A stretch of DNA of 31,308 nucleotides from a virus (lineage: Duplodnaviria; Heunggongvirae; Uroviricota; Caudoviricetes): IMG/VR virus record IMGVR_UViG_2690316224_000023; one strand, given 5' to 3'. The notes beneath the pieces are model-generated. The model saw nothing but the letters and a program-made list of their open reading frames with translations, had not been told where the DNA came from and did not search any database. The translations under genes and the position numbers were made by a program. Shown here in pieces: positions 2,487-31,308 of the stretch (its first letter is position 1; each line of letters opens with the position of its first letter).

Positions 2487-2711
2487 ATGCATACAGTTTC
2501 TGAAAACAAGTGCGGTAAATACGCATTACTGCTGCAACAGGCCAGAGCCGAAGCACAGGCCGACGCAGCGACACGCTTTTCTTCTCATCTTGACGCCATG
2601 ATTCGCCATATCACAAAGGCGGAGTTATCCCGCGTGGAGATAGTCGAGCTGCTCAGTCAGGAGTCGGAAAAATTTCACAATATCGGATTGTCTCGCGGGG
2701 AGGTGCTTTGA
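2487..2711 (+). CDS. Small early protein (P2 orf80 position)
   Basis: 74-aa ORF in the early operon; start ATG preceded by GGAGAAAG. Confidence 0.5.
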
Positions 2712-3013
2712 TGTCCTGTTCTCATTCAGTTGTATTACTGAATAACGCCTTAAAAATCGCCGTTATGAAAAATGGCGATTTGTCTCTTATTCAACTTTGC
2801 CTTGATAAAGAAAAGCGCGACATAACTGAATCTGTTATCGCGATTTATCAGAGCGAATTAAACCTCCTGTCTGATGTGATCAATTTACTTGTGAAACGCG
2901 CTGTATTTCACAAGCAAATTTCCTCAGTGGATGAACTGACAAAATTAACGACAGAACTCGCCAGCTATTGCGCTGATGAATTTAAGAAACTGAACGACAA
3001 AAGGAACTGGTAA
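2708..3013 (+). CDS. Small early protein (P2 orf81 position)
   Basis: 101-aa ORF, start overlaps the previous stop (ATGA), consistent with translational coupling. Confidence 0.5.
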
Positions 3014-3237
3014 TGCCGGACAACGTAGATTTCATTCAGGAACAACAGGCTGAATTACTGGAGCGCCAGATTAACGCGGCAAGGGTAAAACATTGCGGTG
3101 CTTCTGCGCTGGTTTGCGAAGAGTGTGACGCGCCAATACCTGCTGCCCGTCGTGCGGCTTATCCGTCAGCCACGCGTTGTGTTTCCTGCCAGTCAGTCTT
3201 TGAAGCAAAAAACAAACATTACCGGAGAACGGCATGA
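3013..3237 (+). CDS. TraR/DksA-family C4 zinc-finger protein (P2 orf82 position)
   Basis: 74 aa with two CxxC pairs (CEECDAP ... CVSCQS) in the spacing typical of DksA/TraR zinc fingers. Confidence 0.65.
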   Translation: MPDNVDFIQEQQAELLERQINAARVKHCGASALVCEECDAPIPAARRAAYPSATRCVSCQSVFEAKNKHYRRTA

Positions 3238-3509: not shown

Positions 3510-5787
3510 AGCCTCCGGGCGTTTTGTCCCTCCGTCAGCATTTGCCGCAGGCACCGGTAAGACGTTTACCGGTGCTTATGCATGGAACGCGCCACGCGAG
3601 GCTGTCGGGCGCGAAAGACCCCTTACACGTGACGAGATGCGTCAGGTGCAAGGTGTTTTATCCACGATTAATCGCCTGCCTTACTTTTTGCGCTCGCTGT
3701 TTACTTCACGCTATGACTACATCCGGCGCAATAAAAGCCCGGTGCACGGGTTTTATTTCCTCACATCCACTTTTCAGCGTCGTTTATGGCCGCGCATTGA
3801 GCGTGTGAATCAGCGCCATGAAATGAACACCGACGCGTCGTTGCTGTTTCTGGCAGAGCGTGACCACTATGCGCGCCTGCCTGGAATGAATGACAAGGAG
3901 CTGAAAAAGTTTGCCGCCCGTATCTCATCGCAGCTTTTCATAATGTATGAGGAACTCTGCGATGCCTGGGTGGATGCGCATGGCGAGAAAGAATCACTGT
4001 TTACGGATGAGGCGCAGGCTCACCTGTATGGTCATGTTGCTGGCGCTGCACGTGCTTTCAATATTTCCCCGCTCTACTGGAAAAAATACCGTAAAGGGCA
4101 GATGACCACGAGGCAGGCATATTCTTCCATTGCCCGTCTGTTTAACGATGAGTGGTGGACTCATCAGCTTAAAGGCCAGCGTATGCGCTGGCATGAGGCG
4201 TTACTGATTGCTGTCGGGGAGGTGAATAAAGACCGTTCTCCTTATGCCAGCAAACATGCCATTCGTGATGTACGTGCACGCCGCCAGGCAAATCTGGAAT
4301 TTCTTAAATCGTGTGACCTTGAAAACAGGGAAACCGGCGAGCGCATCGACCTTATCAGTAAGGTGATGGGCAGTATTTCTAATCCTGAAATTCGCCGGAT
4401 GGAGCTGATGAACACCATTGCTGGCATTGAGCGTTACGCCGCCGCAGAGGGTGATGTGGGGATGTTTATCACGCTGACCGCGCCGTCAAAGTATCACCCG
4501 ACACGTCAGGTCGGAAAAGGCGAAAGTAAAACCGTCCAGCTAAATCACGGCTGGAACGATGAGGCATTTAATCCAAAGGATGCGCAGCGTTATCTCTGCC
4601 ATATCTGGAGCCTGATGCGCACGGCATTCAAGGATAATGATTTACAGGTCTACGGTTTGCGTGTCGTCGAGCCACACCACGACGGAACGCCGCACTGGCA
4701 TATGATGCTTTTTTGTAATCCACGCCAGCGTAACCAGATTATTGAAATCATGCGTCGCTACGCGCTCAAAGAGGATGGCGACGAAAGAGGAGCTGCGCGA
4801 AACCGTTTTCAGGCAAAACACCTTAACCGGGGCGGTGCTGCGGGGTATATCGCGAAATACATCTCAAAAAACATCGATGGCTATGCACTGGATGGTCAGC
4901 TCGATAACGATACCGGCAGGCCGCTGAAAGACACTGCCGCGGCTGTTACCGCATGGGCGTCAACGTGGCGCATTCCGCAATTTAAAACGGTTGGCCTGCC
5001 GACAATGGGGGCTTACCGTGAACTACGCAAATTGCCGCGCGGCGTCAGCATTGCTGATGAGTTTGACGAGCGCGTCGAGGCTGCACGCGCCGCCGCAGAC
5101 AGTGGTGATTTTGCGTTGTATATCAGCGCGCAGGGTGGGGCAAATGTCCCGCGCGATCGTCAGACTGTCAGGGTCGCCCGTAGCCCGTCGGATGACGTTA
5201 ACGAGTACGAGGAAGAAGTCGAGAGAGTGGTCGGCATTTACGCGCCGCATCTCGGCGCGCGTCATATTCATATCACCAGAACGACGGACTGGCGCATTGT
5301 GCCGAAAGTTCCGGTCGTTGAGCCTTTGACTTTAAAAAGCGGCATCGCCGCGCCTCGGAGTCCTGTCAATAACTGTGGAAAGCTCACCGGTGGTGATACT
5401 TCGTTATCGGCTCCCACACCGACTGAGCACGCCGCAGCAGTGCTTAATCTGGTTGATGAGGGTGTCATCGAATGGAGTGACCCGGAGGTCGTGAAGGCGC
5501 TCAGGGGCGCATTAAAACACAACCTGAGAACACCAAATCGTCAGCAAAGAAACGGAAGCCCGTTAAAACCATATGAAATGGCACCATCGGCCAGACTGAC
5601 CAGGTCGGAACGAATGCAAATTACCCGTATCCGTGTTGACCTTGCTCAAAAGGGTATCAGGCCGCAGCGATGGGAGCTCGAAGTGTTGGCACGAGGCGCT
5701 ACTGTTAGTTATGAGGGACAAAATTTTGCATTCACGGATAGCCATGACTGGAGTGGTTTTGCTGAACACTTTGATCTTTTTGAGTAA
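3499..5787 (+). CDS. A: Rolling-circle replication initiator, P2 gpA-like (ORF track start 3457; ATG 3499 gives 762 aa, close to the 761 aa I recall for P2 A)
   Basis: HUH motif (GTPHWHMMLF) and paired catalytic tyrosines (GYIAKYISKN) typical of rolling-circle Rep endonucleases; position after the early small ORFs. Confidence 0.9.
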   Translation: MAVKASGRFVPPSAFAAGTGKTFTGAYAWNAPREAVGRERPLTRDEMRQVQGVLSTINRLPYFLRSLFTSRYDYIRRNKSPVHGFYFLTSTFQRRLWPRIERVNQRHEMNTDASLLFLAERDHYARLPGMNDKELKKFAARISSQLFIMYEELCDAWVDAHGEKESLFTDEAQAHLYGHVAGAARAFNISPLYWKKYRKGQMTTRQAYSSIARLFNDEWWTHQLKGQRMRWHEALLIAVGEVNKDRSPYASKHAIRDVRARRQANLEFLKSCDLENRETGERIDLISKVMGSISNPEIRRMELMNTIAGIERYAAAEGDVGMFITLTAPSKYHPTRQVGKGESKTVQLNHGWNDEAFNPKDAQRYLCHIWSLMRTAFKDNDLQVYGLRVVEPHHDGTPHWHMMLFCNPRQRNQIIEIMRRYALKEDGDERGAARNRFQAKHLNRGGAAGYIAKYISKNIDGYALDGQLDNDTGRPLKDTAAAVTAWASTWRIPQFKTVGLPTMGAYRELRKLPRGVSIADEFDERVEAARAAADSGDFALYISAQGGANVPRDRQTVRVARSPSDDVNEYEEEVERVVGIYAPHLGARHIHITRTTDWRIVPKVPVVEPLTLKSGIAAPRSPVNNCGKLTGGDTSLSAPTPTEHAAAVLNLVDEGVIEWSDPEVVKALRGALKHNLRTPNRQQRNGSPLKPYEMAPSARLTRSERMQITRIRVDLAQKGIRPQRWELEVLARGATVSYEGQNFAFTDSHDWSGFAEHFDLFE

Positions 5788-6017
5788 TTACCATAAAATG
5801 CTCAGGCTACCGCTTGGGATATCCCATGGAATGCTCAGTGTATACGCTTTATGCATAGGGTATAAAGGCTGCAATTGGCAACAATTGTGCTGACATGGAG
5901 ATAAACTCATGTTGAAACTAGTGAGAGTACGTCAGTACAACCGCTATCGTTTCGGACGTTGGGAGACGGTGCGTAAACACCGCCGTTCTTACCCAACACG
6001 ATGAGATGATATGCGGC

Positions 6018-8225
6018 CTAAGCGGTAGTGTCTTCTATATTCTTTTTCTCTTCATACATTTTATTAAAATGTGAAATATCTCCCATAAGTCTAAATATCT
6101 CTTTAAATTGTGTGATGTATATGTCGGGTGTTATTTCACCCATATCTGTTATGTTTATCGAATCTGAGTGTGAACCTCTATTTATATATCTATAGAAAGC
6201 CTTGAAATTACTATTGCTTTCATTTTGTGCAAGCCTGTTCAATTCATCTTGTAACTCGTTAGTTTTATGAACAAATGCAAAGTAATATTCTAAGATGTTT
6301 CTCATTGTATTAGGGATAACTACATTGTGAACTTTTCCATCTCTGGCATCCTTGAGTATTTGCCATAAAGATTGATATTCATTTTGCAAACTATCTCTGC
6401 TGATGTTAGAAAAAGAACTATGTAGGTTTTTTGTTATTCTAAAAAGCTGATAGGTGCTATTGAATTTCCTTTCTGAAATTGGAGCTAACTTTATTAGCTC
6501 ATGAAAAAAATATAGATTATGAGTGAGGATTATCACTTTATTAGCAGAAGTGAAAATGTCATAGTGAATCATCGATGCTATATCATAGATATAGTTCTGA
6601 GAGAGACTTGAAATAGGATCGTCAATGACGATTAAACTGTCTCGGTTGTCGAATTCATCTGTGTTTGTTTGTCCCTTACAATATTCAATAAAATAGAGAA
6701 ATGTAATGAGAGTTTTTTCACCTTCGCTAAGAGATCTATATACATTTTTACTTGGTGTATTATCTGAGCGAACTATAACGAAACTATTTTTTATGGTTGG
6801 ATGTTTATCAATGTAGAAACAGGTAATGCCAAGGTTTTTTAATTTTGAGTTTATCGAGGAGATTGTTGTGTCGATATCGGATGTTTTATTTCTTAATTCC
6901 TTTATTTCATCATCAGTGTGTTTGATTTCTTTGTTAATAGAATCAATGCTTTCTTCGAGACTCTTGATAATGATGTCGTTTTCGGCTTGAATTTTCTCTA
7001 AAACCTCAAAGTCTGTATTGCGGTAGTTTCTCAATGCTCCCCAAAACTGATTTTTTATTTTATCTTGAGTAAGGTTAAATTGTTTTACCTTTTCATTAAG
7101 GTCATTAATTCTAGAGTTATATTGTTTTATGTCTTTTAGAAGAGATTCCTCAATATCTTTATCTTTATCAAGAGTTACGCTGAGTGACGGGTTTTGTATC
7201 TTGTTATTAATTAACTCAATGTTACTTTTTAGCATTTTCTCAAGGGAAGAAATGTGAGCAAGACTAGTTTTTCTTTCTTCAATTGAGATTGCTGTACAGT
7301 CATTTAACTGTGTTTTTAGTAATTGAAGTTGTTCTTGAGTAGTTAATTCATAAATATATTTTAATTTTTCAATTGATGTTATTTTCTGAGCGTAGCTCTC
7401 ATCAAAAATTTGCTCGAGCGCCTCTGTGAATTTATCATCAATGGTTTCTTTTTGACAAAAAGGGCAAATGTCGCCAACTAAATAATTTTCTTTACCTTTT
7501 TTAACCCAATCGAGATTCTGAAGCTTTTTGATTGTTTCTGATAGATAGCTATTGCTAGAATCAATGACAGGAGTCTTTAATAAATTTTCATCATCAAAAG
7601 AAATAGGGTAAGGATTATATGGAGATATTGTTTGTATGGTGGTGTTTTTATGATTCAATAACTCTCTGTAGTCAGTTAATAATTGATTTAAATCTATATC
7701 AGGTAATCTAATAGAAGACTTTACCTTTGTGAAAAGGTTTCTTTTATTCTTAAGGTACCCTGCCATTAATGAGTTGACATCAGAGTTTCTTATGTATTCG
7801 GTATTTAACCATATTGATTCAGTACAACTTGTTTCTGCATCATGATTGCGGTCTTTAATTTTTTGATAATTTGTTTTTGTTGCCTCTAGTTTTATTTTTA
7901 ATGTTTTAACTATTTCTCTTTTCTTACTTATCTCTTTTTCGATCTCGGTATTTTCTTTGCTTAATGTAAAAATCCCTTTTTGAACATCTTTATCAAAGAA
8001 GTTGTCTTCAATGAACTTTGTATTATAAACCAATGGACGATAGTTATTAATGTTTGTGCAGCGGCAGTCCCTATAGTCATCGTCTGCTGGATTATAGAAA
8101 AAATTTGATATGGTAGATTTCCCAGCTCCGTTTTGCCCGTAAAGGATATTTATTCTTTTTTCGAGGGATATTTTCGTATATTTATTTTTGTCGTAGCTTG
8201 TTACATTTTTTAGACTAAGTTCCAT
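6018..8225 (-). CDS. Cargo gene: 735-aa ABC/SMC-like ATPase with coiled-coil/CxxC insert and C-terminal putative nuclease domain; candidate anti-phage defence protein (RloC/PrrC-like architecture)
   Basis: Walker A GQNGAGKST (nt 8112-8138), CPFC (7455-7466), ABC signature-like LSEGEK (6714-6731), Walker B LIVIDD (6618-6635), H-loop ILTHN (6516-6530), C-terminal R642-x3-E646 ... H653/H686; strongly AT-rich against GC-rich phage flanks; sits where P2 has old/tin. Confidence 0.8.
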   Translation of the reverse strand: MELSLKNVTSYDKNKYTKISLEKRINILYGQNGAGKSTISNFFYNPADDDYRDCRCTNINNYRPLVYNTKFIEDNFFDKDVQKGIFTLSKENTEIEKEISKKREIVKTLKIKLEATKTNYQKIKDRNHDAETSCTESIWLNTEYIRNSDVNSLMAGYLKNKRNLFTKVKSSIRLPDIDLNQLLTDYRELLNHKNTTIQTISPYNPYPISFDDENLLKTPVIDSSNSYLSETIKKLQNLDWVKKGKENYLVGDICPFCQKETIDDKFTEALEQIFDESYAQKITSIEKLKYIYELTTQEQLQLLKTQLNDCTAISIEERKTSLAHISSLEKMLKSNIELINNKIQNPSLSVTLDKDKDIEESLLKDIKQYNSRINDLNEKVKQFNLTQDKIKNQFWGALRNYRNTDFEVLEKIQAENDIIIKSLEESIDSINKEIKHTDDEIKELRNKTSDIDTTISSINSKLKNLGITCFYIDKHPTIKNSFVIVRSDNTPSKNVYRSLSEGEKTLITFLYFIEYCKGQTNTDEFDNRDSLIVIDDPISSLSQNYIYDIASMIHYDIFTSANKVIILTHNLYFFHELIKLAPISERKFNSTYQLFRITKNLHSSFSNISRDSLQNEYQSLWQILKDARDGKVHNVVIPNTMRNILEYYFAFVHKTNELQDELNRLAQNESNSNFKAFYRYINRGSHSDSINITDMGEITPDIYITQFKEIFRLMGDISHFNKMYEEKKNIEDTTA

Positions 8226-8467
8226 TTTTATTTTTCTCTATTGTTTGTGTGTGTATATATGAAAACTGGTCAAAAATTGCTCTGGAAAAGACATGGCAAT
8301 TACAAAAGATCTACCTTAGATGAGTAACATTTTCAAGCCACAGCTAAGCTTTCAGTTGCATGATTTTGCATTTGATTTTGTGGTCTAAAACCTAAGATGA
8401 ACACTTTGTTGGGTAAGGTGTGTGTATACGAATGCAACTGCATTAAAACCGCCCCGTGAAGCGGGCG

Positions 8468-12548: not shown

Positions 12549-13622
12549 ATGCGCCAGGAAACCCGCTTTAAATTTAATGCCTACCTGTCCCGTGTTGCCG
12601 AACTGAACGGCATCGACGCCGGTGATGTGTCGAAAAAATTCACCGTTGAACCGTCGGTCACCCAGACCCTGATGAACACCATGCAGGAGTCCTCTGACTT
12701 TCTGACCCGCATCAATATTGTGCCGGTCAGCGAAATGAAAGGGGAAAAAATTGGTATCGGTGTCACCGGCTCCATCGCCAGCACCACCGACACCGCCGGT
12801 GGCACCGAGCGTCAGCCGAAGGACTTCTCGAAGCTGGCGTCCAGTAAGTACGAATGCGACCAGATTAACTTCGATTTTTATATCCGCTACAAAACGCTTG
12901 ACCTGTGGGCGCGTTATCAGGATTTCCAGCTCCGTGTCCGTAACGCCATTATCAAACGCCAGTCCCTTGATTTCATCATGGCCGGTTTTAACGGCGTGAA
13001 GCGTGCCGAAACCTCTGACCGCAGCAGTAACCCGATGCTGCAGGATGTGGCAGTCGGCTGGCTGCAGAAATACCGCAATGAAGCCCCGGCGCGCGTGATG
13101 AGCAAGGTTACTGACGAGGAAGGTCACACGACCTCTGAGGTCATCCGCGTGGGTAAGGGCGGTGATTATGCCAGCCTCGATGCACTGGTGATGGATGCGA
13201 CCAACAACCTGATTGAACCGTGGTATCAGGAAGACCCTGACCTTGTGGTGATTGTGGGTCGTCAGCTACTGGCGGACAAGTATTTCCCCATCGTCAACAA
13301 GGAGCAGGACAACAGCGAAATGCTGGCCGCTGACGTCATCATCAGCCAGAAACGCATCGGTAACCTGCCGGCGGTACGCGTCCCGTACTTCCCGGCGGAT
13401 GCGATGCTCATCACGAAGCTGGAAAACCTGTCCATCTACTACATGGATGACAGCCATCGCCGCGTGATTGTGGAAACCCCGAAACTCGACCGCGTGGAGA
13501 ACTACGAGTCAATGAACATTGATTACGTGGTGGAAGACTACGCCGCCGGTTGTCTGGTGGAAAAAATTAAGGTCGGTGACTTCTCCACACCGGCTAAAGT
13601 GACCGCAGAGCCGGGAGCGTAA
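12549..13622 (+). CDS. N: Major capsid protein, P2 gpN-like
   Basis: 357 aa, the same length I recall for P2 gpN; follows the scaffold gene. Confidence 0.9.
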   Translation: MRQETRFKFNAYLSRVAELNGIDAGDVSKKFTVEPSVTQTLMNTMQESSDFLTRINIVPVSEMKGEKIGIGVTGSIASTTDTAGGTERQPKDFSKLASSKYECDQINFDFYIRYKTLDLWARYQDFQLRVRNAIIKRQSLDFIMAGFNGVKRAETSDRSSNPMLQDVAVGWLQKYRNEAPARVMSKVTDEEGHTTSEVIRVGKGGDYASLDALVMDATNNLIEPWYQEDPDLVVIVGRQLLADKYFPIVNKEQDNSEMLAADVIISQKRIGNLPAVRVPYFPADAMLITKLENLSIYYMDDSHRRVIVETPKLDRVENYESMNIDYVVEDYAAGCLVEKIKVGDFSTPAKVTAEPGA

Positions 13623-13625
13623 CCG

Positions 13626-14369
13626 ATGACGAGTCCCGCACAGCGCCACATGATGCGGGTCTCGGCAGCGATGACCGCGCAGCGGGACGCCGCCCCGCTG
13701 CGACATGCAACTGTCTATGAGCAGATGCTGGTCAAGCTGGCCGCAGACCAGCGCACACTGAAAGCGATTTATTCAAAAGAGCTGAAGGCCGCGAAAAAAC
13801 GCGAACTGCTGCCGTTCTGGTTGCCGTGGGTGAACGGCGTGCTGGAGCAGGGCAAAGGCGCACAGGATGACATTCTGATGACGGTCATGCTGTGGCGTCT
13901 GGATACCGGCGATATTGCTGGTGCGCTGGAGATTGCCCGTTATGCCCTGAAGTACGGTCTGACCATGCCGGGTAAACACCGCCGCACCCCGCCGTACATG
14001 TTCACCGAGGAGGTGGCGCTCGCGGCCATGCGCGCTCACGCTGCCGGTGAATCCGTGGATATCCGCCTGCTGACGGAGACCCTTGAACTGACCGCCACGG
14101 CTGACATGCCTGATGAAGTGCGCGCAAAGCTGCACAAAATCACCGGTCTGTTTCTGCGTGACGGTGGTGATGCCGCCGGTGCGCTGGCTCACCTGCAACG
14201 TGCGACACAGCTCGACTGTCAGGCAGGCGTCAAAAAAGAGATTGAACGACTGGAGCGGGAGCTGAAACCGAAGCCGGAGCCGCAGCCCAAAGCGGCCACC
14301 CGCGCCCCGCGTAAGACCCGGAGTGCGACACCGGCAAAACGTGGACGCCCGAAAAAGAAAGCCAGTTAA
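13626..14369 (+). CDS. M: Terminase small/endonuclease subunit, P2 gpM-like
   Basis: 247 aa as P2 gpM; basic Lys/Arg/Pro-rich C-terminal tail (KPKPEPQPKAATRAPRKTRSATPAKRGRPKKKAS). Confidence 0.85.
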   Translation: MTSPAQRHMMRVSAAMTAQRDAAPLRHATVYEQMLVKLAADQRTLKAIYSKELKAAKKRELLPFWLPWVNGVLEQGKGAQDDILMTVMLWRLDTGDIAGALEIARYALKYGLTMPGKHRRTPPYMFTEEVALAAMRAHAAGESVDIRLLTETLELTATADMPDEVRAKLHKITGLFLRDGGDAAGALAHLQRATQLDCQAGVKKEIERLERELKPKPEPQPKAATRAPRKTRSATPAKRGRPKKKAS

Positions 14370-14468
14370 CAACCGAATGCGCCCCGCGCCAGGGCGGCAC
14401 GCCGGTCAGTGAGGGTGAATCACCTGACACTGCACCGGCGTCCACCGCCCGACTTTTCAGAGGTAGTC

Positions 14469-14978
14469 ATGATGACGCTGATTATTCCGCGAAAGGAGGC
14501 TCCCGTGTCCGGTGAGGGTACGGTGGTCATCCCGCAACCGGCAGGCGACGAGCCGGTGATTAAAAACACGTTCTTTTTTCCCGATATCGACCCGAAGCGC
14601 GTCCGGGAACGTATGCGCCTTGAGCAGACCGTCGCCCCCGCCCGTCTGCGTGAGGCCATCAAGTCAGGCATGGCGGAGACGAATGCGGAGCTGTACGAGT
14701 ACCGCGAACAGAAAATTGCCGCCGGTTTTACGCGTCTGGCGGACGTCCCGGCGGACGACATCGACGGTGAAAGCATCAAAGTTTTTTACTACGAGCGCGC
14801 CGTGTGTGCGATGGCGACCGCGTCGCTTTATGAACGTTATCGCGGTGTGGATGCCAGTGCGAAAGGCGACAAGAAGGCCGACAGCATTGACAGCACCATT
14901 GATGAGCTGTGGCGGGATATGCGCTGGGCAGTGGCGCGCATCCAGGGCAAGCCGCGCTGCATCGTGAGTCAAATCTGA
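14469..14978 (+). CDS. L: Head completion protein, P2 gpL-like (ORF track start 14409; ATG 14469 gives 169 aa)
   Basis: Size and position match P2 gpL; stop overlaps the X start (ATGA at 14976-14980). Confidence 0.8.
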   Translation: MMTLIIPRKEAPVSGEGTVVIPQPAGDEPVIKNTFFFPDIDPKRVRERMRLEQTVAPARLREAIKSGMAETNAELYEYREQKIAAGFTRLADVPADDIDGESIKVFYYERAVCAMATASLYERYRGVDASAKGDKKADSIDSTIDELWRDMRWAVARIQGKPRCIVSQI

Positions 14979-17713: not shown

Positions 17714-17779
17714 TTGTGCCATTCCTGACACCTCATCGTCACATTGCCGCCGGTATGACCCGGCGGCATCCTTCCCGTT

Positions 17780-18415
17780 ATGAACACTCTCGCAAATATT
17801 CAGGAACTCGCGCGCGCACTGCGCAACATGATCCGCACCGGCATTATCGTCGAAACCGACCTTAACGCCGGTCGCTGCCGTGTGCAGACCGGCGGCATGT
17901 GCACCGACTGGCTTCAGTGGCTGACCCATCGCGCCGGGCGTTCGCGCACATGGTGGGCACCTTCCGTGGGGGAACAGGTGCTGATTCTGGCCGTGGGCGG
18001 TGAACTTGACACGGCGTTTGTTCTGCCGGGGATTTATTCCGGTGATAACCCCGCGCCGTCTGCGTCGGCGGATGCCCTGCATATCCGTTTCCCTGACGGG
18101 GCGGTGATTGAGTATGAACCCGAAACCAGTGCACTCACGGTAAGCGGAATTAAAACGGCCAGCGTGACGGCTTCTGATTCTGTTACCGCCACGGTGCCGG
18201 TGGTCATGGTGAAAGCATCAACCCGCGTCACCCTGGACACCCCGGAGGTGGTCTGCACCAACAGACTGATTACCGGCACGCTGGAAGTACAGAAGGGCGG
18301 GACGATGCGCGGCAACATTGAACACACCGGCGGTGAACTCTCATCAAACGGTAAGGTACTGCATACCCATAAACACCCCGGCGACAGCGGCGGCACAACC
18401 GGGGGACCTCTATGA
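17780..18415 (+). CDS. V: Baseplate spike/assembly protein, P2 gpV-like
   Basis: 211 aa as P2 gpV; first gene of the baseplate operon V-W-J-I-H. Confidence 0.85.
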   Translation: MNTLANIQELARALRNMIRTGIIVETDLNAGRCRVQTGGMCTDWLQWLTHRAGRSRTWWAPSVGEQVLILAVGGELDTAFVLPGIYSGDNPAPSASADALHIRFPDGAVIEYEPETSALTVSGIKTASVTASDSVTATVPVVMVKASTRVTLDTPEVVCTNRLITGTLEVQKGGTMRGNIEHTGGELSSNGKVLHTHKHPGDSGGTTGGPL

Positions 18416-18763: not shown

Positions 18764-19672
18764 ATGCCGATTATCGACCTGAATCAGCTACCCGCACCGG
18801 ATGTGGTCGAGGAGCTGGACTTTGAAACCATTCTTGCCGAACGCAAGGCGACACTGATTTCCCTTTACCCGGAAGACCAGCAGGAGGCGGTCGCCCGTAC
18901 CCTGACGCTGGAATCCGAGCCTCTCGTCAAACTGCTGGAGGAAAATGCTTATCGCGAGCTTATCTGGCGTCAGCGTGTGAATGAGGCCGCACGGGCGGTG
19001 ATGCTGGCCTGCGCCGCCGGTAATGACCTTGATGTGATTGGTGCCAATTACAACACCACGCGCCTGATTATCACCCCGGCAGATGATTCGACCCTCCCGC
19101 CGACACCGGCAGTGATGGAGTCTGACACCGATTATCGTCTGCGTATTCAGCAGGCGTTTGAGGGCTTAAGCGTCGCCGGGTCGGTGGGAGCCTATCAGTA
19201 TCATGGTCGCAGTGCCGACGGGCGTGTCGCGGATATCTCTGTCACCAGTCCGTCTCCGGCCTGCGTCACCATCTCCGTGCTGTCACGTGAAAATAACGGT
19301 GTCGCATCCGAAGACCTGCTGGCCGTGGTGCGTAACGCCCTGAATGGCGAGGACGTCAGGCCGGTGGCCGACCGCGTGACCGTGCAGTCTGCCGCCATTG
19401 TTGAATACCAGATAAACGCCACGCTTTACCTTTACCCTGGTCCCGAAAGCGAACCCATTCGCGCTGCCGCCGTGAAAAAACTGGAAACGTATATCACGGC
19501 ACAGCACCGGCTGGGGCGCGACATCCGTCTGTCTGCCATTTATGCCGCTTTGCATGTGGAAGGTGTGCAGCGTGTCGAACTGGCTGCACCACTGGCCGAC
19601 ATCGTGCTTAACAGCACGCAGGCGTCTTTCTGTACCGAATACCGCGTCGTGACCGGAGGCTCGGATGAGTGA
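18764..19672 (+). CDS. J: Baseplate protein, P2 gpJ-like
   Basis: 302 aa as P2 gpJ; position. Confidence 0.85.
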   Translation: MPIIDLNQLPAPDVVEELDFETILAERKATLISLYPEDQQEAVARTLTLESEPLVKLLEENAYRELIWRQRVNEAARAVMLACAAGNDLDVIGANYNTTRLIITPADDSTLPPTPAVMESDTDYRLRIQQAFEGLSVAGSVGAYQYHGRSADGRVADISVTSPSPACVTISVLSRENNGVASEDLLAVVRNALNGEDVRPVADRVTVQSAAIVEYQINATLYLYPGPESEPIRAAAVKKLETYITAQHRLGRDIRLSAIYAALHVEGVQRVELAAPLADIVLNSTQASFCTEYRVVTGGSDE

Positions 19673-20276
19673 TTCGCGCCTGCTGCCGACCGGCTCATCA
19701 CCACTTGAAGTCGCCGCCGCAAAAGCCTGTGCGGAAATTGAAAAAACGCCGGTCAGTATTCGTGAGCTGTGGAACCCGGATACCTGTCCGGCAAATCTGC
19801 TGCCGTGGCTGGCGTGGTCATTTTCTGTTGACCGCTGGGATGATAAGTGGCCGGAAGCGACAAAACGCGCTGTTATCCGCGATGCGTATTTCATTCACTG
19901 CCATAAGGGCACTATAGGCGCAATCCGGCGTGTGGTGGAGCCGCTCGGCTATCTGATTGAGGTGAGGGAGTGGTGGCAACTCAACGAGGAGCCGGGGACG
20001 TTCCGTATCGTTGTTGGTGTGCTTGAGCAGGGTATTACCGAGGAAATGTATCAGGAGCTGGAGCGCCTCGTTGCTGATGCAAAACCGGCAAGCCGCCATC
20101 TGACGGGACTGGCTATCAGTTTAAGTACAACCGGCAACATTTTTGCCGGTGCGGGATGCTATCACGGTGACGCCCTGACGGTTTATCCCTACACCCCGGA
20201 GGCCATTATTGTCGGAGGGGATTATTTCCCGGCCTCGGCCATTCATTTAATTGATAACCTGAGAGTAAACGCATGA
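19665..20276 (+). CDS. I: Baseplate protein, P2 gpI-like
   Basis: 203-aa ORF; start overlaps the J stop and stop overlaps the H start (ATGA); position. Confidence 0.8.
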   Translation: MSDSRLLPTGSSPLEVAAAKACAEIEKTPVSIRELWNPDTCPANLLPWLAWSFSVDRWDDKWPEATKRAVIRDAYFIHCHKGTIGAIRRVVEPLGYLIEVREWWQLNEEPGTFRIVVGVLEQGITEEMYQELERLVADAKPASRHLTGLAISLSTTGNIFAGAGCYHGDALTVYPYTPEAIIVGGDYFPASAIHLIDNLRVNA

Positions 20277-21394
20277 CAGTGAAATACTACGCCATTCTGA
20301 CTAATCAGGGCGCAGCACGGCTGGCTAACGCGACGATGCTCGGCAGTAAGCTGAATCTGACGCAAATGGCCGTTGGTGATGCGAATGGTGTCTTGCCGAC
20401 ACCAGACCCGGCACAGACAAAACTGATTAACCAGAAACGCATTGCACCGCTGAATCTTCTGAGTGTTGACCCGAACAACCAGAGCCAGATTATTGCGGAG
20501 CAAATCATCCCTGAGAACGAGGGCGGATTCTGGATCCGTGAGATTGGGCTTTATGATGATGAAGGCGTACTCATTGCGGTGGCGAACTGCCCGGAAACGT
20601 ACAAACCGCAGTTGCAGGAAGGCAGTGGTCGTACCCAGACTATCCGCATGATTCTGGTTGTCACGAATACCGAAGCTATCACGCTGAAAATCGACCCGTC
20701 GGTGGTACTGGCGACCCGTAAATACGTGGATGATGAAGTCCTGGAATTAAGGCTGTATGTGGATGACCAGATGAGAAACCACATTGCCGCACAGGATCCT
20801 CATACCCAGTATGCGCAGAAACATAATCCGACATTTACCGGAGAACCAAAAGCGCCGACGCCTGCCGCAGGAAATAACACCACGCGGATTGCGACCACTG
20901 AGTTTGTTCAGGCCGCTATTACCGCTCTGATTAACGGTGCGCCTGACACGCTGGACACACTGAAAGAAATTGCCGCAGCCATTAACAATGACCCGAAATT
21001 CAGCACCACCATTAACAATGCGCTGTCAGGTAAGCAGCCACTGGATGAGACGCTGACTCATTTGAGTGGAAAGGATGTTGCCGGTCTTCTCGCATACCTT
21101 GGTTTTGGAGAAGGTGCTAACTGGGTTATGTTACCTGGAGGAATGATAATTCAGCGTGTTTATCTTGGATTTCCTGTTGGCACCAATGTAAGACACATAA
21201 CTTTCCCCCGGTCGTTTACAACAACGAACTATTCCATCTCAATTAACTGGAATGATATCGGTACTGTAACAACTGAAACACAATCACCAGCAAATGTGGC
21301 GGTTGTTCATCAAACAAAATCATTAACAGGGGCCAGCATCTGGCAGGCAGGTCCCGGGGGATTTAATGTGGACATTATAGCGGTGGGGTATTGA
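20273..21394 (+). CDS. H: Tail fibre protein H in its current orientation (373 aa): constant N-terminal part plus a switchable C-terminal part beginning inside the invertible segment
   Basis: N-terminal phage tail-fibre domain; the left recombination site falls at codons about 276-282 (GFGEG); the 3' part shares that junction motif with the inverted cassette. Confidence 0.85.
   Translation: MTVKYYAILTNQGAARLANATMLGSKLNLTQMAVGDANGVLPTPDPAQTKLINQKRIAPLNLLSVDPNNQSQIIAEQIIPENEGGFWIREIGLYDDEGVLIAVANCPETYKPQLQEGSGRTQTIRMILVVTNTEAITLKIDPSVVLATRKYVDDEVLELRLYVDDQMRNHIAAQDPHTQYAQKHNPTFTGEPKAPTPAAGNNTTRIATTEFVQAAITALINGAPDTLDTLKEIAAAINNDPKFSTTINNALSGKQPLDETLTHLSGKDVAGLLAYLGFGEGANWVMLPGGMIIQRVYLGFPVGTNVRHITFPRSFTTTNYSISINWNDIGTVTTETQSPANVAVVHQTKSLTGASIWQAGPGGFNVDIIAVGY
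21099..21117. repeat. Left inverted repeat / recombination site of the invertible tail-fibre segment (gix/hix-like)
   Basis: TTGGTTTTGGAGAAGGTGC matches the reverse complement of 22828-22846 at 18 of 19 positions; resembles the right half of the Gin/Hin site consensus (CCGAGGTTTTGGATAA). Confidence 0.6.
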
Positions 21395-21395
21395 T

Positions 21396-21824
21396 ATGTA
21401 CGTATGGAGCGCTAAAGCAAATGGCTTTTTCCCCATATCGGAGAAAGAAAAATTTGAGGCATCAGGCCTGTGGCCTGATGATGGTGTAATAGTCAGTGAG
21501 GAAGAACATAAAAAGTTATTTATGGATATTCCACCAGGAAAACAGATTGGAACACTGAATGGAAAACCAGCACTGATAGATATTCCTCAGCCGACCAAAA
21601 AGGAATTAATAGCTATTGCTGAAGTTAAAAAATCCCAATTACGGGAAAAAGCTGACAGTGAAATATCCTGGCGTCAGGATGCTGTTGATGCTGATATCGC
21701 AACTGATGAAGAAGCTACAACTCTCACCCAATGGAAGAAATACCGTGTGCTGCTGATGCGTGTTGATACGTCAACAGCACCCGATATTGAATGGCCTACG
21801 CCTCCGGCAGTTCAGGCCAGATGA
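21396..21824 (+). CDS. G: Tail fibre assembly protein (P2 gpG / Mu U-like), active orientation
   Basis: 142 aa; conserved Tfa C-terminal motif (TAPDIEWPTPP); convergent with and overlapping the alternative tfa'. Confidence 0.8.
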   Translation: MYVWSAKANGFFPISEKEKFEASGLWPDDGVIVSEEEHKKLFMDIPPGKQIGTLNGKPALIDIPQPTKKELIAIAEVKKSQLREKADSEISWRQDAVDADIATDEEATTLTQWKKYRVLLMRVDTSTAPDIEWPTPPAVQAR

Positions 21825-22389
21825 CATCCGGCGCGGTGCTGGTATCTGTTGCCGTCACCGCGTCAATGTAATCCAGCACGGCGTTAAGTCGGGTTGTTTC
21901 TGCCTGAGTCAGTTTCCGTCCGGCCTGTAATTTCAGCTGAATCAGACTGATGGAAGCCATTGCAGCATCAATCAGTGACTGGCGCTGTGCTTCTGCCGCT
22001 TCTACTGCGGCACCGTGTTGTGCCTCAGTATCTGTCACCCATTTCTCACCATCCCATTTATCATATGGCGTTAACGGTGAAAGCGTGACATAACCGTTTT
22101 TGATGGCACCGATATAATCCACTGTAACAGCAGCACCATTTTCGATTGAGTAAACAGTCTCATTGCGATGATCTTCTTCATGGCTCCATCCCTTACCTGT
22201 AAATACTGCCACTCTTCCCAGAATGTTTTCGCCAGGGTCAATTCCAGTGGAACAGGCGGGCATACTTACGCCAGTATTAATATATTCATCAGACCAGCCC
22301 GTATACTCAGATGTTTCAGCATCATAATAAAAACAACGCATATCGCCCGGCACTGTAGCCAGCCCATTTTTATCAAAAACAGGTTTCAT
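21796..22389 (-). CDS. Alternative tail fibre assembly protein (tfa', Mu U'-like), currently in the inverted orientation
   Basis: 197 aa; same C-terminal Tfa motif (TAPDVIWPELPEA); 3' end overlaps the 3' end of G. Confidence 0.75.
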   Translation of the reverse strand: MKPVFDKNGLATVPGDMRCFYYDAETSEYTGWSDEYINTGVSMPACSTGIDPGENILGRVAVFTGKGWSHEEDHRNETVYSIENGAAVTVDYIGAIKNGYVTLSPLTPYDKWDGEKWVTDTEAQHGAAVEAAEAQRQSLIDAAMASISLIQLKLQAGRKLTQAETTRLNAVLDYIDAVTATDTSTAPDVIWPELPEA

Positions 22390-22846
22390 TATTTAGCCCT
22401 CACCAGAAAGTTAAATGCAATATTTCGCGGTCTGACAGCAACAAAATTCACACCATCACCCGCAGAGTTACTGGTGAAATTAAATCGTGAAAATCCTGGC
22501 TGATTTCCGGTGATGCCATCATGAAAGTTAATTGCGTGTCCCGCACCTCCGCCTATATTCCCGGCAAACTGAGAAAAGTTTGTAGCTTCCTGCCAGCTTA
22601 ATAATTCGCGACCACCATCTGCACCTCGCCCGTCATCCCAGATACGAATGAAATCACCGCGGGCTTCAGGTAATACCAGCGAAGGAAACACTTTCGCCAG
22701 CACAGGGTAATCAGAGGCAGAAAATTTCGCCCCGTTGAACTTCAAAAACACCATACCGGACCAGCTGTCGATTACAGTATTTGGCATTGCCGCGGAGGGC
22801 CAGAAGAACGGAACGCCAATAGCTGGGGCACCTTCTCCCAAACCAA
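22389..22846 (-). CDS. Alternative tail-fibre C-terminal cassette (H-variable'), promoterless; would fuse to H codons 1 to about 281 after inversion
   Basis: Minus-strand ORF 22389..22886; the GLGEGAP junction at codons 15-21 is encoded by the right inverted repeat; Gly-rich fibre-tip-like sequence. Confidence 0.65.
22828..22846. repeat. Right inverted repeat / recombination site of the invertible segment
   Basis: GCACCTTCTCCCAAACCAA is the reverse complement of 21099-21117 with one mismatch. Confidence 0.6.
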
Positions 22847-22913
22847 CGTTTAAGAAAATGCAGAGATAGCGGCTAACTGGCATCATCTCCGGTTTTTATT
22901 CAGGGGATCCGTC

Positions 22914-23507
22914 ATGCTTATTGGCTATGTCCGCGTATCAACAAATGACCAGAACACGGAATTGCAGCGTAACGCACTGGAGTGTGCAGGATGTGAGCTG
23001 ATTTTTGAGGACAAAATCAGCGGCACGAAGTCCGACAGACCGGGGCTGAAAAAACTGCTCAGAACATTATCGGAAGGTGACACTCTGGTTGTCTGGAAGC
23101 TGGACAGGCTGGGGCGTAGTATGCGGCATCTGGTCATTCTGGTTGAGGAACTGCGCGAACGCGGCGTTAATTTTCGCAGCCTGACGGATGCTATTGATAC
23201 CAGCACGCCGATGGGGCGTTTTTTCTTTCATGTGATGGGTGCTCTGGCTGAAATGGAGCGAGAACTCATTGTCGAGCGGACACGCGCCGGACTGGAAGCG
23301 GCCAGAGCCAAAGGTCGTATTGGTGGCAGACGACCGAAACTCACCACGAGTGAGTGGGAGCAGGCCGGACGGTTGCTGGCTGCAGGGGAGTCACGTCAAC
23401 GCGTGGCACTGATTTTTGATATTGGTCTGTCCACGCTCTATAAAAAATTTCCCTCATCAGCGACAAAGAATAAATTGTGTCATCCCTTAGCCAACCGGGA
23501 CAAATAG
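22914..23507 (+). CDS. Serine site-specific DNA invertase (Hin/Gin/Pin/Cin family)
   Basis: 197 aa; N-terminal resolvase catalytic domain with the active-site serine (MLIGYVRVSTNDQN), conserved DRLGRS region, C-terminal HTH; lies directly next to the invertible segment. Confidence 0.9.
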   Translation: MLIGYVRVSTNDQNTELQRNALECAGCELIFEDKISGTKSDRPGLKKLLRTLSEGDTLVVWKLDRLGRSMRHLVILVEELRERGVNFRSLTDAIDTSTPMGRFFFHVMGALAEMERELIVERTRAGLEAARAKGRIGGRRPKLTTSEWEQAGRLLAAGESRQRVALIFDIGLSTLYKKFPSSATKNKLCHPLANRDK

Positions 23508-23566
23508 CCTGACATCTCCGGCACAACTGAAAATATCACTCACCCATTAACCACGGAGTTAAACGG

Positions 23567-24757
23567 ATGAGTGACTATCATCACGGCGTGCAGGTGCTGG
23601 AGATTAACGACGGCACCCGCGTCATTTCCACCGTATCCACTGCCATTGTCGGCATGGTCTGCACGGCCAGCGATGCGGATGCGGAAACCTTCCCCCTCAA
23701 TAAACCTGTGCTGATTACCAATGTGCAGAGCGCAATTGCAAAGGCCGGTAAAAAAGGCACGCTGGCGGCATCGTTGCAGGCCATCGCTGACCAGTCAAAA
23801 CCGGTCACCGTTGTCGTGCGTGTGGAAGACGGCACCGGCGACGACGAAGAAACGAAACTCGCGCAGACTGTTTCCAATATCATCGGCACCACCGACGAAA
23901 ACGGTCAGTACACCGGACTGAAAGCCCTGCTGGCGGCGGAGTCGGTTACCGGTGTTAAACCGCGTATTCTCGGTGTGCCGGGACTGGACACCAAAGAGGT
24001 GGCGGTTGCACTGGCATCAGTCTGTCAGAAGCTGCGCGCTTTCGGGTATATCAGCGCATGGGGCTGTAAAACCATTTCCGAGGTGAAAGCCTACCGCCAG
24101 AATTTCAGCCAGCGTGAGCTGATGGTCATCTGGCCGGATTTCCTCGCATGGGATACGGTCGCCAGTACCACCGCCACCGCGTATGCCACCGCCCGTGCGC
24201 TGGGCCTGCGCGCTAAAATCGACCAGGAGCAGGGCTGGCATAAAACGCTGTCCAACGTCGGGGTAAACGGTGTTACCGGCATCAGTGCCTCTGTATTCTG
24301 GGATTTGCAGGAGTCTGGCACCGATGCTGACCTGTTGAACGAGTCAGGTGTCACAACGCTGATTCGCCGTGACGGTTTCCGCTTCTGGGGTAACCGTACC
24401 TGCTCTGATGACCCGCTGTTCCTCTTTGAAAACTACACCCGCACCGCGCAGGTGCTGGCCGACACGATGGCTGAGGCGCACATGTGGGCGGTGGACAAGC
24501 CCATCACTGCAACGCTGATTCGCGACATCGTTGACGGCATCAATGCCAAATTCCGTGAGCTGAAAACAAACGGCTATATCGTGGATGCGACCTGCTGGTT
24601 CAGCGAAGAATCCAACGATGCGGAAACCCTCAAGGCCGGAAAACTGTATATCGACTACGACTATACACCGGTGCCTCCTCTTGAAAACCTGACCCTGCGC
24701 CAGCGTATTACCGATAAATACCTGGCAAATCTGGTCACCTCGGTTAACAGCAATTAA
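23567..24757 (+). CDS. FI: Contractile tail sheath protein, P2 gpFI-like
   Basis: 396 aa as P2 FI; followed by the tube gene. Confidence 0.9.
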   Translation: MSDYHHGVQVLEINDGTRVISTVSTAIVGMVCTASDADAETFPLNKPVLITNVQSAIAKAGKKGTLAASLQAIADQSKPVTVVVRVEDGTGDDEETKLAQTVSNIIGTTDENGQYTGLKALLAAESVTGVKPRILGVPGLDTKEVAVALASVCQKLRAFGYISAWGCKTISEVKAYRQNFSQRELMVIWPDFLAWDTVASTTATAYATARALGLRAKIDQEQGWHKTLSNVGVNGVTGISASVFWDLQESGTDADLLNESGVTTLIRRDGFRFWGNRTCSDDPLFLFENYTRTAQVLADTMAEAHMWAVDKPITATLIRDIVDGINAKFRELKTNGYIVDATCWFSEESNDAETLKAGKLYIDYDYTPVPPLENLTLRQRITDKYLANLVTSVNSN

Positions 24758-30324: not shown

Positions 30325-30405
30325 ATCCTCAATTTGCCTGCTGCTTAATGCATTGCAGATGATTTGCTTCCGTTATACTAGCGTCAGTTGATAGCGGGAG
30401 TATTT

Positions 30406-31308
30406 ATGAATCAATCTTATGGACGGCTGGTCAGTCGGGCGGCGATTGCTGCGACGGCGATGGCTTCGTTGCTATTGCTGATTAAAATTTTTGCATGGTG
30501 GTATACCGGGTCGGTGAGTATTCTCGCCGCGCTGGTGGATTCGCTGGTGGATATCGGCGCGTCGTTGACGAATTTATTGGTGGTGCGATATTCCCTGCAA
30601 CCTGCCGACGATAATCACTCGTTTGGTCACGGTAAAGCTGAGTCCCTCGCGGCGCTGGCGCAAAGTATGTTTATCTCCGGTTCGGCACTATTCCTGTTTT
30701 TGACGGGTATTCAACATCTGATATCTCCAACACCGATGACAGATCCAGGCGTCGGGGTTATCGTGACAATTGTGGCGCTAATTTGTACGATTATCCTTGT
30801 CTCGTTTCAGCGTTGGGTGGTGCGGCGGACGCAAAGCCAGGCGGTGCGGGCTGATATGCTACATTACCAGTCTGATGTTATGATGAACGGCGCAATTCTG
30901 CTGGCGCTGGGGTTGTCCTGGTACGGCTGGCATCGCGCCGATGCTCTGTTTGCATTGGGAATCGGCATCTATATTTTATATAGCGCGTTACGCATGGGAT
31001 ATGAGGCGGTACAGTCATTACTGGATCGCGCATTGCCTGATGAGGAACGGCAAGAAATTATTGATATCGTGACTTCCTGGCCGGGTGTTAGCGGCGCTCA
31101 CGATCTTCGCACGCGGCAGTCAGGGCCGACCCGCTTTATTCAGATTCATTTGGAAATGGAAGACTCTCTGCCTTTGGTTCAGGCACATATGGTGGCGGAT
31201 CAGGTAGAGCAGGCTATTTTACGGCGTTTTCCGGGATCGGATGTAATTATCCATCAGGACCCCTGTTCCGTCGTACCCAGGGAGGGTAAACGGTCTATGC
31301 TTTCATAA
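30406..31308 (+). CDS. fieF: Host cation-diffusion-facilitator ferrous-iron/zinc efflux transporter FieF (YiiP); 300 aa from ATG 30406 (ORF track begins at 30388)
   Basis: Sequence matches E. coli FieF/YiiP as I remember it, including metal-site residues at D45/D49 (LVDSLVD) and H153/D157 (LHYQSD); GC content and codon style differ from the adjacent prophage. Confidence 0.9.

Follow-up and report, generated by a model that had tools for sequence, protein, structure and literature searches.

A P2-like prophage (IMG/VR virus record IMGVR_UViG_2690316224_000023; the whole 31,308-nt stretch analysed is hereafter the window) very probably carries a two-state, site-specific inversion switch of the Gin/Hin type that acts on the tip of its tail fibre. 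The parts of the locus, in window coordinates, are as follows.

20273–21098, plus strand: 5′ portion of the tail-fibre gene H that stays constant (about 275 codons), an ORF on the late V operon transcript
21087–21112, plus strand: left crossover site (26 bp), inside H, reading TTCTCGCATACC TT GGTTTTGGAGAA, with the TT core at 21099–21100
21101–22844, no strand: core-to-core invertible segment of 1744 bp
21101–21394, plus strand: tip A, the variable H 3′ end (about 97 aa), predicted to be the currently expressed cassette
21396–21824, plus strand: tfa, the chaperone for tip A (142 aa; Pfam Caudo_TAP, E = 7e-33)
21796–22389, minus strand: tfa′, the silent chaperone for tip B (197 aa; Pfam Caudo_TAP, E = 4e-27)
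22389–22844, minus strand: silent H 3′ end (tip B, about 151 aa), without a start context of its own
22833–22858, minus strand: right crossover site (26 bp), reading TTTTCTTAAACG TT GGTTTGGGAGAA on the minus strand, with the core at 22845–22846
22914–23507, plus strand: Gin/Hin/Cin/Pin-family serine DNA invertase (197 aa; Pfam Resolvase and HTH_7)
22935–22998, plus strand: putative recombinational (Fis) enhancer within the 5′ end of the invertase gene
23470–23566, plus strand: late promoter pF region, kept along with its activator-binding site and aligned to the P2 activator site (P2 17555–17583)

The complete H ORF (20273–21394, 373 aa) has a Phage_tail_fib N-terminal domain (Pfam; residues 1–150, E = 1e-62), and its N-terminal part is 41% identical to that of P2 H. 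ORFs and Pfam matches agree on the convergent layout described in the initial annotation, with the H 3′ end and tfa on the plus strand and a promoterless alternative with tfa′ on the minus strand; the silent H 3′ end lies in an ORF at 22389–22886 (minus strand), and the 3′ ends of tfa′ and tfa overlap by 29 nt on opposite strands. Tips A and B are unrelated in sequence and have differing weak Pfam matches (Gp53-like_C for tip A, with an E value of 1.7e-4 that is under the curated cut-off, and Collar for tip B), and the lambdoid phage mEp213 has tip B in its side tail fibre. In flipped relatives, where tip A is the silent copy, PGAP names it ‘gp53-like domain-containing protein’. The two fibre tips and their chaperones are the entire content of the segment. 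The junction peptide that the repeat had been said to encode in both orientations is LGFGEG in the expressed copy, with LGLGEG in its silent counterpart, and flipping the segment in silico bore out the proposal of an in-frame inversion, giving a 427-aa H that replaces the 373-aa H. The locus has the make-up of an invertible tail-fibre host-range switch of the Mu G, P1 C, e14 P or p15B Min type: a constant fibre 5′ end outside the segment and oppositely oriented, in-frame 3′ ends within it, each with a chaperone.

The segment is bounded by an inverted pair of sites (21087–21112 and 22833–22858) that have a TT core in both copies and share a 19-nt block with one mismatch. This block corresponds to the inverted repeats of about 19 bp first noted at the locus: TTGGTTTTGGAGAAGGTGC (21099–21117) pairs with 22828–22846 with exactly one mismatch, a T at 21106 for which the partner has G. 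The longer arms (21087–21117 and 22828–22858, 31 nt) are 81% complementary. By chance, a 19-nt inverted repeat with at most one mismatch is expected 0.003 times per 5 kb and 0.10 times per whole window. The functional unit, which refines the 19-nt block and starts 12 nt to the left of it, is the 26-bp site, made up of a 12-nt half-site, a 2-nt core and a second 12-nt half-site; 26 bp is also the size of recombination sites that Johnson & Simon 1985 (cited in PMC3798978) give in their title. The two sites are imperfectly palindromic, inverted and identical in their 2-bp cores, as in invertase systems, and alignment with gix, which had been suggested as a check, showed that the half-sites resemble those of Mu (TTATCCAAAACC / TTCCTGTAAACC). 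Within the window, the 14-nt core motif is confined to the left and right sites; because there are only these two matches, we dropped a third crossover site, and with it a multi-state shufflon of the kind present at one EPEC locus.

The gene just past the right repeat, earlier assigned to a 197-aa Hin/Gin-family invertase, is an intact ORF that starts 55 nt beyond the right site. Its product matches Pfam Resolvase (residues 3–135, E = 2e-52) and HTH_7 (residues 138–181, E = 9e-13) and, over residues 1–182, the Mu Gin structures 3uj3 (E = 1.6e-94, 317.8 bits) and 4m6f (E = 4.2e-93, 313.2 bits), with approximately 80% identity to Mu Gin by our own count; its best match to γδ resolvase has an E value of 6e-33, against 1.6e-94 for Gin. 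The catalytic Ser9 is present within a YVRVSTNDQ motif; R7, S9, R42, K46, K47 and R50 were checked by position, and D64, R65 and R68 were read off the KLDRLGR motif. Residues specific to Fis-dependent invertases are, in Hin, K47, K/R48 and K/R51 of helix B and Q151, R154 and L155 of helix 1 of the DNA-binding domain (PMC3798978). With an offset of one residue relative to Hin, this enhancer-activated set is present here as K46, K47 and R50 together with Q150, R153 and L154, the last three within a Q-x-x-R-L motif at 150–154 (Q150-A-G-R153-L154). In NCBIfam, neither the invertase nor H nor the chaperones had a specific equivalog, the only matches being sub-threshold ones to other serine recombinases, and the best protein identity of the invertase among GTDB species representatives was 89%.

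Two blocks near the start of the invertase gene (gene nt 22–41 and 70–83, with starts 48 nt apart) are identical to Mu gin, compared with an overall identity of 71%. Among 17 diverged invertase genes, conservation at third codon positions peaks at codons 5–16 and 25–32, on an uneven synonymous background with fewer synonymous differences across the whole N-terminal two-thirds of the gene than in the C-terminal third. The conserved blocks lie at what we take, with the title of Kahmann 1985, to be the position of the Fis enhancer of gin. These synonymous blocks are suggestive of a putative recombinational enhancer, and the switch probably depends on Fis and on this element. A scan between the right site and the invertase ATG returned no convincing sigma-70-like promoter, a result that carries little weight because the scan was a simple consensus match.

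Both orientations occur among relatives, as shown by blastn comparison of the loci. The in-silico flipped sequence found a contiguous end-to-end match (96.7–97.8% identity, 100% coverage) in at least 5 complete Escherichia coli genomes, and the unflipped form found the same kind of contiguous match in at least 5 others; at least 10 complete E. coli genomes carry the exact cassette pair of the window (95.7–97.8% identity), none of the complete E. coli genomes matching the full region at ≥99%. In two matched pairs of loci (L002/L003 and L004/L005), the flanks are collinear at 98.3–100% identity and a middle part of 1.75–1.84 kb is reverse-complemented at 99.9%. The breakpoints fall at the sites—the outer half-sites stay fixed and everything inward of the shared block TTGGTTTGGGAGAA swaps—and the constant part of H is the same in relatives of either orientation. 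The real genomes L003 and L005, both flipped, each encode an intact H of 427 aa, and that of L003 is identical to the in-silico product at 419 of 427 residues. Inversion of the segment is thus seen between close relatives in two matched pairs, and this molecule itself is seen in one orientation. E. coli W and B-766 have identical left flanks, inverted segments and 7 mismatches in the right flank; because of these mismatches and their differing genome sizes, they cannot be called the same strain, and we did not uphold them as one strain in two orientations. More widely, 53 of the 79 related IMG/VR viral contigs carry two copies of the site, which in most of the 53 loci are inverted, 1.5–2.5 kb apart and alike in their TT core, with the right site approximately 80 nt before the invertase (starting at about 3920 in loci with the invertase at locus position 4001). 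The left site recurs with the same core in many related viral loci, and the tip cassettes are shuffled, the same cassettes being found on either side in different IMG/VR loci.

Could this copy be a fossil, descended from a working system and now locked, with the minus-strand cassette as dead cargo? Whether caused by the T/G mismatch of the left site, by silence of the invertase gene or by an enhancer defect, such locking is unlikely. The left and right sites do differ at 21106, where the left site has T and most relatives have G; however, the Mu gix half-site GGTTTTGGATAA also has T at the equivalent position, and the T variant recurs with the same cassette in two relatives (L018 and L050); it accompanies three different outer half-sites (those of the window, L018 and L050). 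Locking would also fit the lack of a promoter-like site for the invertase in the simple consensus scan and the single orientation shown by a single sequence, but the invertase ORF is full length with all checked catalytic and Fis-contact residues intact, the ORFs of the silent tip B and tfa′ are intact, and the flipped H of a real genome closely matches the in-silico product (the 419 of 427 residues noted above). We consider this particular invertase copy to be probably active.

In the two-state switch that we favour, the late V-operon transcript would contain the constant 5′ part of H followed by whichever variable cassette faces it; in the sequenced orientation, the 373-aa H with tip A and tfa would be expressed. 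By homology with the characterized family, invertase dimers would bind both 26-bp sites, host Fis on the putative enhancer within the invertase gene’s own 5′ end would lead to a synaptic tetramer, and Ser9 would cleave the 2-nt TT core of both sites, with strands exchanged by subunit rotation. The 1744-bp segment would then flip, giving the 427-aa H with tip B, co-expressed with tfa′. Because the invertase gene lies just beyond the segment, it would be untouched by inversion. We propose that, as a consequence of flipping, a lysogen population would release particles of both receptor specificities side by side, and a change of orientation would be expected to alter host range.

The likeness to the Mu G segment drawn in the initial annotation extends to the annotated gene order of Mu (S-U / U′-S′, with gin next on the same side and strand). 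In both systems, the fibre 5′ end is constant and is followed by a variable 3′ end with a chaperone, the alternative 3′ end and chaperone in inverted orientation, and then an invertase outside the segment on the plus strand, and in both the sites are 26 bp long, have similar half-sites and lie in frame within the fibre gene. They differ in that Mu is a transposable phage whereas the host phage here is a P2-like myovirus, in segment length (1.74 kb here; approximately 3.06 kb in Mu between the annotated G-segment boundaries), in the core dinucleotide (TT here and TC in Mu) and in the site-encoded peptide (YLGFGEG here and NLGLQE in Mu). Mu has unrelated tip cassettes, and tip B is common to lambdoid side tail fibres.

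The novelty implied for this arrangement does not hold. Escherichia phage pro483 (Peduovirus pro483, NC_028943, a record of the pro383 family) has the same annotated series of H, tfa, minus-strand tfa and tail collar fibre protein, DNA invertase and tail sheath; across 76% of the window’s first 25 kb, its backbone shows 97.5% identity, and its left site is identical, whereas only 57% of the 3.2-kb region is common because pro483 carries another expressed tip cassette. Many P2-like prophages of E. coli also carry this module. In Fels-2, the gene is named fin (STM2702), and the tail-fibre 3′ end beside this pin/gin homologue is inverted between LT2 and LT7 (PMC7953296). In the P2-like prophages of EPEC E2348/69, which include a simple two-state version, orientations coexist in clonal cultures, as found by sequencing and PCR (PMC4272514). 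Going by these published descriptions, Fels-2 and EPEC E2348/69 share with this prophage a P2-like identity and an invertible fibre 3′ end next to a pin/gin homologue; one EPEC locus is shufflon-like, with three repeats and four variants, in contrast to the two sites of the window. A 2024 preprint on hotspots of P2-like phages also describes a DNA invertase as often present at the tail-fibre swapping locus, with adjacent genes inverted. The switch type is already known in P2-like phages, and its mechanism is that of the textbook Gin/Hin system.

It is highly unlikely that the invertase acts mainly elsewhere—in trans on host segments, or in phase variation or defence—with the fibre flip incidental. 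The name fin of the Fels-2 gene (PMC7953296) is in keeping with such a role, as are the presence of several related switches in some E. coli genomes (up to 11 matching places per genome) and the inversion in a cryptic prophage driven by PinQ, which is reported to block T2 adsorption (PMC12529663). Nevertheless, the gene is coupled to its own site pair in most related viral loci, the segment encodes solely fibre tips and their chaperones, and any action in trans would supplement the local switch, not supplant it.

The repeat might instead be a by-product of modular fibre evolution, an LGLGEG-coding motif at a module boundary with rearrangement by homologous recombination, although we regard this as extremely improbable. 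The fibre gene of mEp213 has the same motif, with no invertase annotated in the 5.6 kb examined, and its homology to tip B ends inside the site. Here, however, a dedicated Gin-like invertase (E = 1.6e-94) lies 55 nt from the right site, related loci retain the 26-bp site with its two half-sites and TT core, and the inversions between relatives are reciprocal and end within the shared block, which at only 19 nt is too short for efficient RecA-dependent exchange.

Besides serving the inversion switch, the 26-bp site may also be a portable junction for the exchange of fibre-tip cassettes among P2-like, lambdoid and Mu-like phages, an idea that we put forward tentatively and hold to be rather doubtful. 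Exchange would be catalysed by the invertase between molecules or aided by the short conserved site. The constant site joined to many different cassettes in the 53 viral loci would fit such a role, as would the homology between tip B and the mEp213 side tail fibre that stops inside the site. The portable junction was reportedly proposed in the 1990s by Sandmeier (cited in PMC8986868); if it is true, only a direct demonstration would be new.

With such a switch, the prophage could release particles with two different fibre tips, and both cassettes need to be considered in host-range prediction and in phage or tailocin engineering on this backbone. At this locus, assemblies of such lysogens can come out mixed or mis-joined. 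The parts of the switch are also mislabelled by automatic pipelines: PGAP treats the silent tip as a partial pseudogene and breaks the flipped H, an intact 427-aa protein, into two pieces marked ‘incomplete’. The main value of the finding lies in correct annotation and practical phage work, and it opens no new biological question.

The surrounding genome is that of a P2-like phage (Peduovirus), judging from its collinear gene order and high backbone identity: local blastn against P2 (NC_001895) gave 95–98% identity across most of the genome in the prophage order int to ogr, and the best phage matches of the window are Peduovirus records. A cation-efflux gene that flanks the prophage, together with the predominance of E. 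coli among the matches, suggests an Escherichia or Shigella host. Most of the structural, replication and lysis genes are collinear with those of P2 at 95–98% and the pF promoter region is kept, whereas P2 has a fixed H, the single chaperone G and then fun(Z) on the minus strand. The P2 record gives H a length of 669 aa (12734–14743), the value given in the initial annotation against the 373 aa here, and places fun(Z) between G and FI, which is the slot before FI that had been attributed to the invertase; it contains no annotated invertase, in agreement with the absence of the switch from the prototype. Homology to P2 resumes at window position 23487 (P2 17572), and FI, the tail sheath gene, starts at 23567, downstream of pF. 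Judged by this alignment, the pF region marks the right edge of the replaced block.

The region between P2 gene I and the tail sheath gene FI very probably constitutes a two-state tail-fibre switch of the Gin/Hin type. An ORF scan of the window identified five ORFs within 20273–23507, and Pfam searches placed this module directly downstream of gene I (Tail_P2_I) and upstream of FI.

Features of the switch region.
20273–21394, plus strand: H, tail fibre (373 aa; Pfam Phage_tail_fib N-terminal domain, E 1e-62)
21087–21112, inside H: left 26-bp crossover site, TTCTCGCATACC-TT-GGTTTTGGAGAA
21396–21824, plus strand: tfa, tail-fibre assembly (142 aa; Pfam Caudo_TAP, E 7e-33)
21796–22389, minus strand: tfa′, second assembly gene (197 aa; Pfam Caudo_TAP, E 4e-27)
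22389–22886, minus strand: ORF, alternative fibre 3′ end
22833–22858: right 26-bp crossover site, minus-strand sequence TTTTCTTAAACG-TT-GGTTTGGGAGAA
22914–23507, plus strand: recombinase (invertase) gene (197 aa; Pfam Resolvase, E 2e-52; HTH_7, E 9e-13)

The ORFs and Pfam domains agree with the initial annotation, which had placed the expressed H 3′ end and tfa on the plus strand and an alternative pair on the minus strand. The two assembly genes are convergent, with 3′ ends that overlap by 29 nt (21796–21824) and similar terminal peptides (TSTAPDIEWPTPP and TSTAPDVIWPELP).

The longest inverted repeat in 19500–24500 has arms at 21087–21117 and 22828–22858 and contains a 19-nt block (21099–21117 versus 22828–22846) with a sole mismatch at 21106, exactly as first described (inverted repeats of about 19 bp with one mismatch). 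The computed chance expectation for such a repeat is about 0.003 per 5 kb, and the 14-nt core motif occurs at only these two places across the 31-kb window. Each 26-bp site comprises two 12-nt half-sites flanking an identical 2-nt core (TT). Comparison of the repeats with gix, a check proposed with the annotation, revealed that the Mu sites share this half-site/core/half-site construction, with TC rather than TT as the core (TTATCCAAAACC-TC-GGTTTACAGGAA). The mismatch at 21106 is probably of no consequence, because the Mu gix half-site GGTTTTGGATAA also has T at this position and because the T variant recurs with the same cassette in two other contigs that have different outer half-sites.

The proposed in-frame alternative fibre tip was reproduced by cutting at the cores and reverse-complementing 21101–22844 in silico. 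The 275 constant codons of H were joined in frame to the minus-strand cassette to yield an H of 427 aa followed by tfa′, with the junction peptide changing from LGFGEG to LGLGEG. The segment thus holds two complete tip-plus-chaperone sets, one of which at a time is joined to the start of H and the late operon; the exchange would presumably alter host range.

Both orientations occur naturally. Complete E. coli genomes were searched with both the sequenced orientation of the region and its in-silico flipped counterpart. The unflipped form gave a single contiguous match with 100% coverage in at least five genomes (matches H26–H30), and the flipped form did so in at least five others (H56–H60), with an equal range of identity. 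In two matched pairs (O39:H21 strain PEB08-01 versus NH-21, and strain B-766 versus E. coli W), the flanks were collinear at 98.3–100% and the middle 1.75–1.84 kb was reverse-complemented at 99.9%. Junction alignments showed that the outer half-sites had not moved and that the sequence inward from the shared block was swapped, indicating that the exchange point lies within the 19-nt block containing the core. The flipped genomes encode H as an intact ORF of 427 aa, and the NH-21 product is identical to that predicted from the window at 419 of 427 positions. RefSeq splits the flipped-state H of NH-21 and W (1501–2784 in both extracted loci, L003 and L005) into two 'incomplete' pseudogene pieces despite this intact ORF, and labels the silent tip of unflipped genomes a partial pseudogene. 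In E. coli E308 (NZ_CP030281.1; matches H31 and H60), two related P2-like switches occupy separate places on the chromosome; one best matches the unflipped query and the other the flipped one.

The invertase aligned with Mu Gin structures 3uj3 and 4m6f over residues 1–182 (E 1.6e-94 and 4.2e-93, respectively; approximately 80% identity to Gin, counted in the alignment), and resolvases reached best scores only near E 1e-30. The nucleophilic S9 is in place together with R7 and R42 (checked by position), and D64, R65 and R68 can be read off the KLDRLGR motif. The initial reading was right in both observation and interpretation. The analysis demonstrates the sites, the frame, the intact enzyme and natural inversion among near-identical relatives, and the window's own copy of the switch is likely to be active. 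McLean et al. (PMC3798978) reported residues specific to Fis/enhancer-dependent invertases; the window enzyme has these, namely basic helix-B K46, K47 and R50, corresponding to Hin 47, 48 and 51, and the helix-1 motif Q-x-x-R-L at 150–154. Inversion is presumably Fis dependent. According to its title, Johnson & Simon 1985 (listed in PMC3798978) found that Hin needs two 26-bp sites and a 60-bp enhancer. Overall identity of the window gene to gin is 71%, with two blocks of perfect identity at nt 22–41 and nt 70–83 (window 22935–22954 and 22983–22996; starts 48 nt apart), and among 17 invertase genes (<95% identical pairwise) third-codon-position conservation was highest at codons 5–16 and 25–32, against an uneven background. 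These patterns are suggestive of a conserved DNA element at 22935–22998, a putative Fis enhancer. A simple consensus scan detected no promoter for the invertase gene, which we presume to be expressed.

An IMG/VR scan that used the window invertase as query identified 79 loci, 53 of which have two site copies, mostly inverted and 1.5–2.5 kb apart, with the core TT in nearly all and the right copy preceding the invertase by approximately 80 nt. Several types of cassette adjoin the sites, and the same type can be expressed in some contigs but silent in others, as expected of a module that flips and swaps cassettes. Some loci depart from the simple two-site layout: in L018, L033 and L056 both sites bear an outer half-site of the 'invertase-proximal' type, and L087 carries three sites and L014 two, all of them on a single strand. 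Such loci may be shufflon-like variants with multiple cassettes, or they may reflect assembly artefacts. Related invertases (72–89% identity) are present in many Enterobacterales species representatives. The silent tip is shared with the side tail fibre of the lambdoid siphovirus mEp213 (91.6% DNA identity; approximately 2501–3095 of the extracted locus, L169, versus 22257–22851). This homology stops inside the crossover site, where TTCTCCCAAACC-AA-GGTTT, encoding NLGLGEGSPAIG, is kept; the 5.6 kb of mEp213 examined contain no annotated invertase.

The arrangement is not new, and belongs to a thoroughly characterised class already reported in the P2-like phage group. Phage pro483 has the same annotated gene order, an inversion adjoining fin has been described in Fels-2 (PMC7953296), and Goldberg et al. 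(PMC4272514) confirmed coexisting orientations by PCR in two EPEC P2-like prophages. A preprint from 2024 on hotspots in P2-like phages reported that the tail-fibre swapping locus often encodes a DNA invertase, with adjacent genes inverted.

Prototype P2 differs in having a 669-aa H followed by G and a minus-strand fun(Z) that precedes FI, with no annotated invertase; the P2 record thereby bears out the stated length of H and the location of fun/Z in the invertase slot. P2 homology is lost within gene I at approximately 20101 and returns at 23487, a position within the activator-binding site of late promoter pF, so the right module edge adjoins the left half of this site and replaces part of it. 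The final ~36 nt of the invertase ORF (23470–23507) enter sequence homologous to the annotated site, which accounts for the slightly longer C terminus (197 aa versus 193 in Gin). The constant part of H (20273–21098) has only 41% protein identity to prototype P2 H, and its first 753 nt have 98% DNA identity to the 'P2' prophage carried by E. coli O157:H43 T22, indicating that the fibre shaft is a different allele from that of prototype P2, not merely a truncated one. Identity to P2 is 95–98% over most of the window. The genes run int ... A, cos, Q ... ogr, and beyond them lies a host cation-efflux gene. Given the integrase gene at the left end (1–1011) and the Cation_efflux and ZT_dimer gene truncated by the right end (30388–31308), the window represents an integrated prophage together with flanking host DNA. 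Its immunity region (1–1755) has diverged from P2, and P2 orf30 lacks a counterpart (gap at approximately 17715–17780). A 735-aa AAA_13 ATPase (6018–8225, minus strand; Pfam E 2e-110), with a match at E 5e-249 to the PADLOC candidate defence family PDC-S06, sits in a stretch without P2 homology (5725–8439), where P2 carries tin and old.
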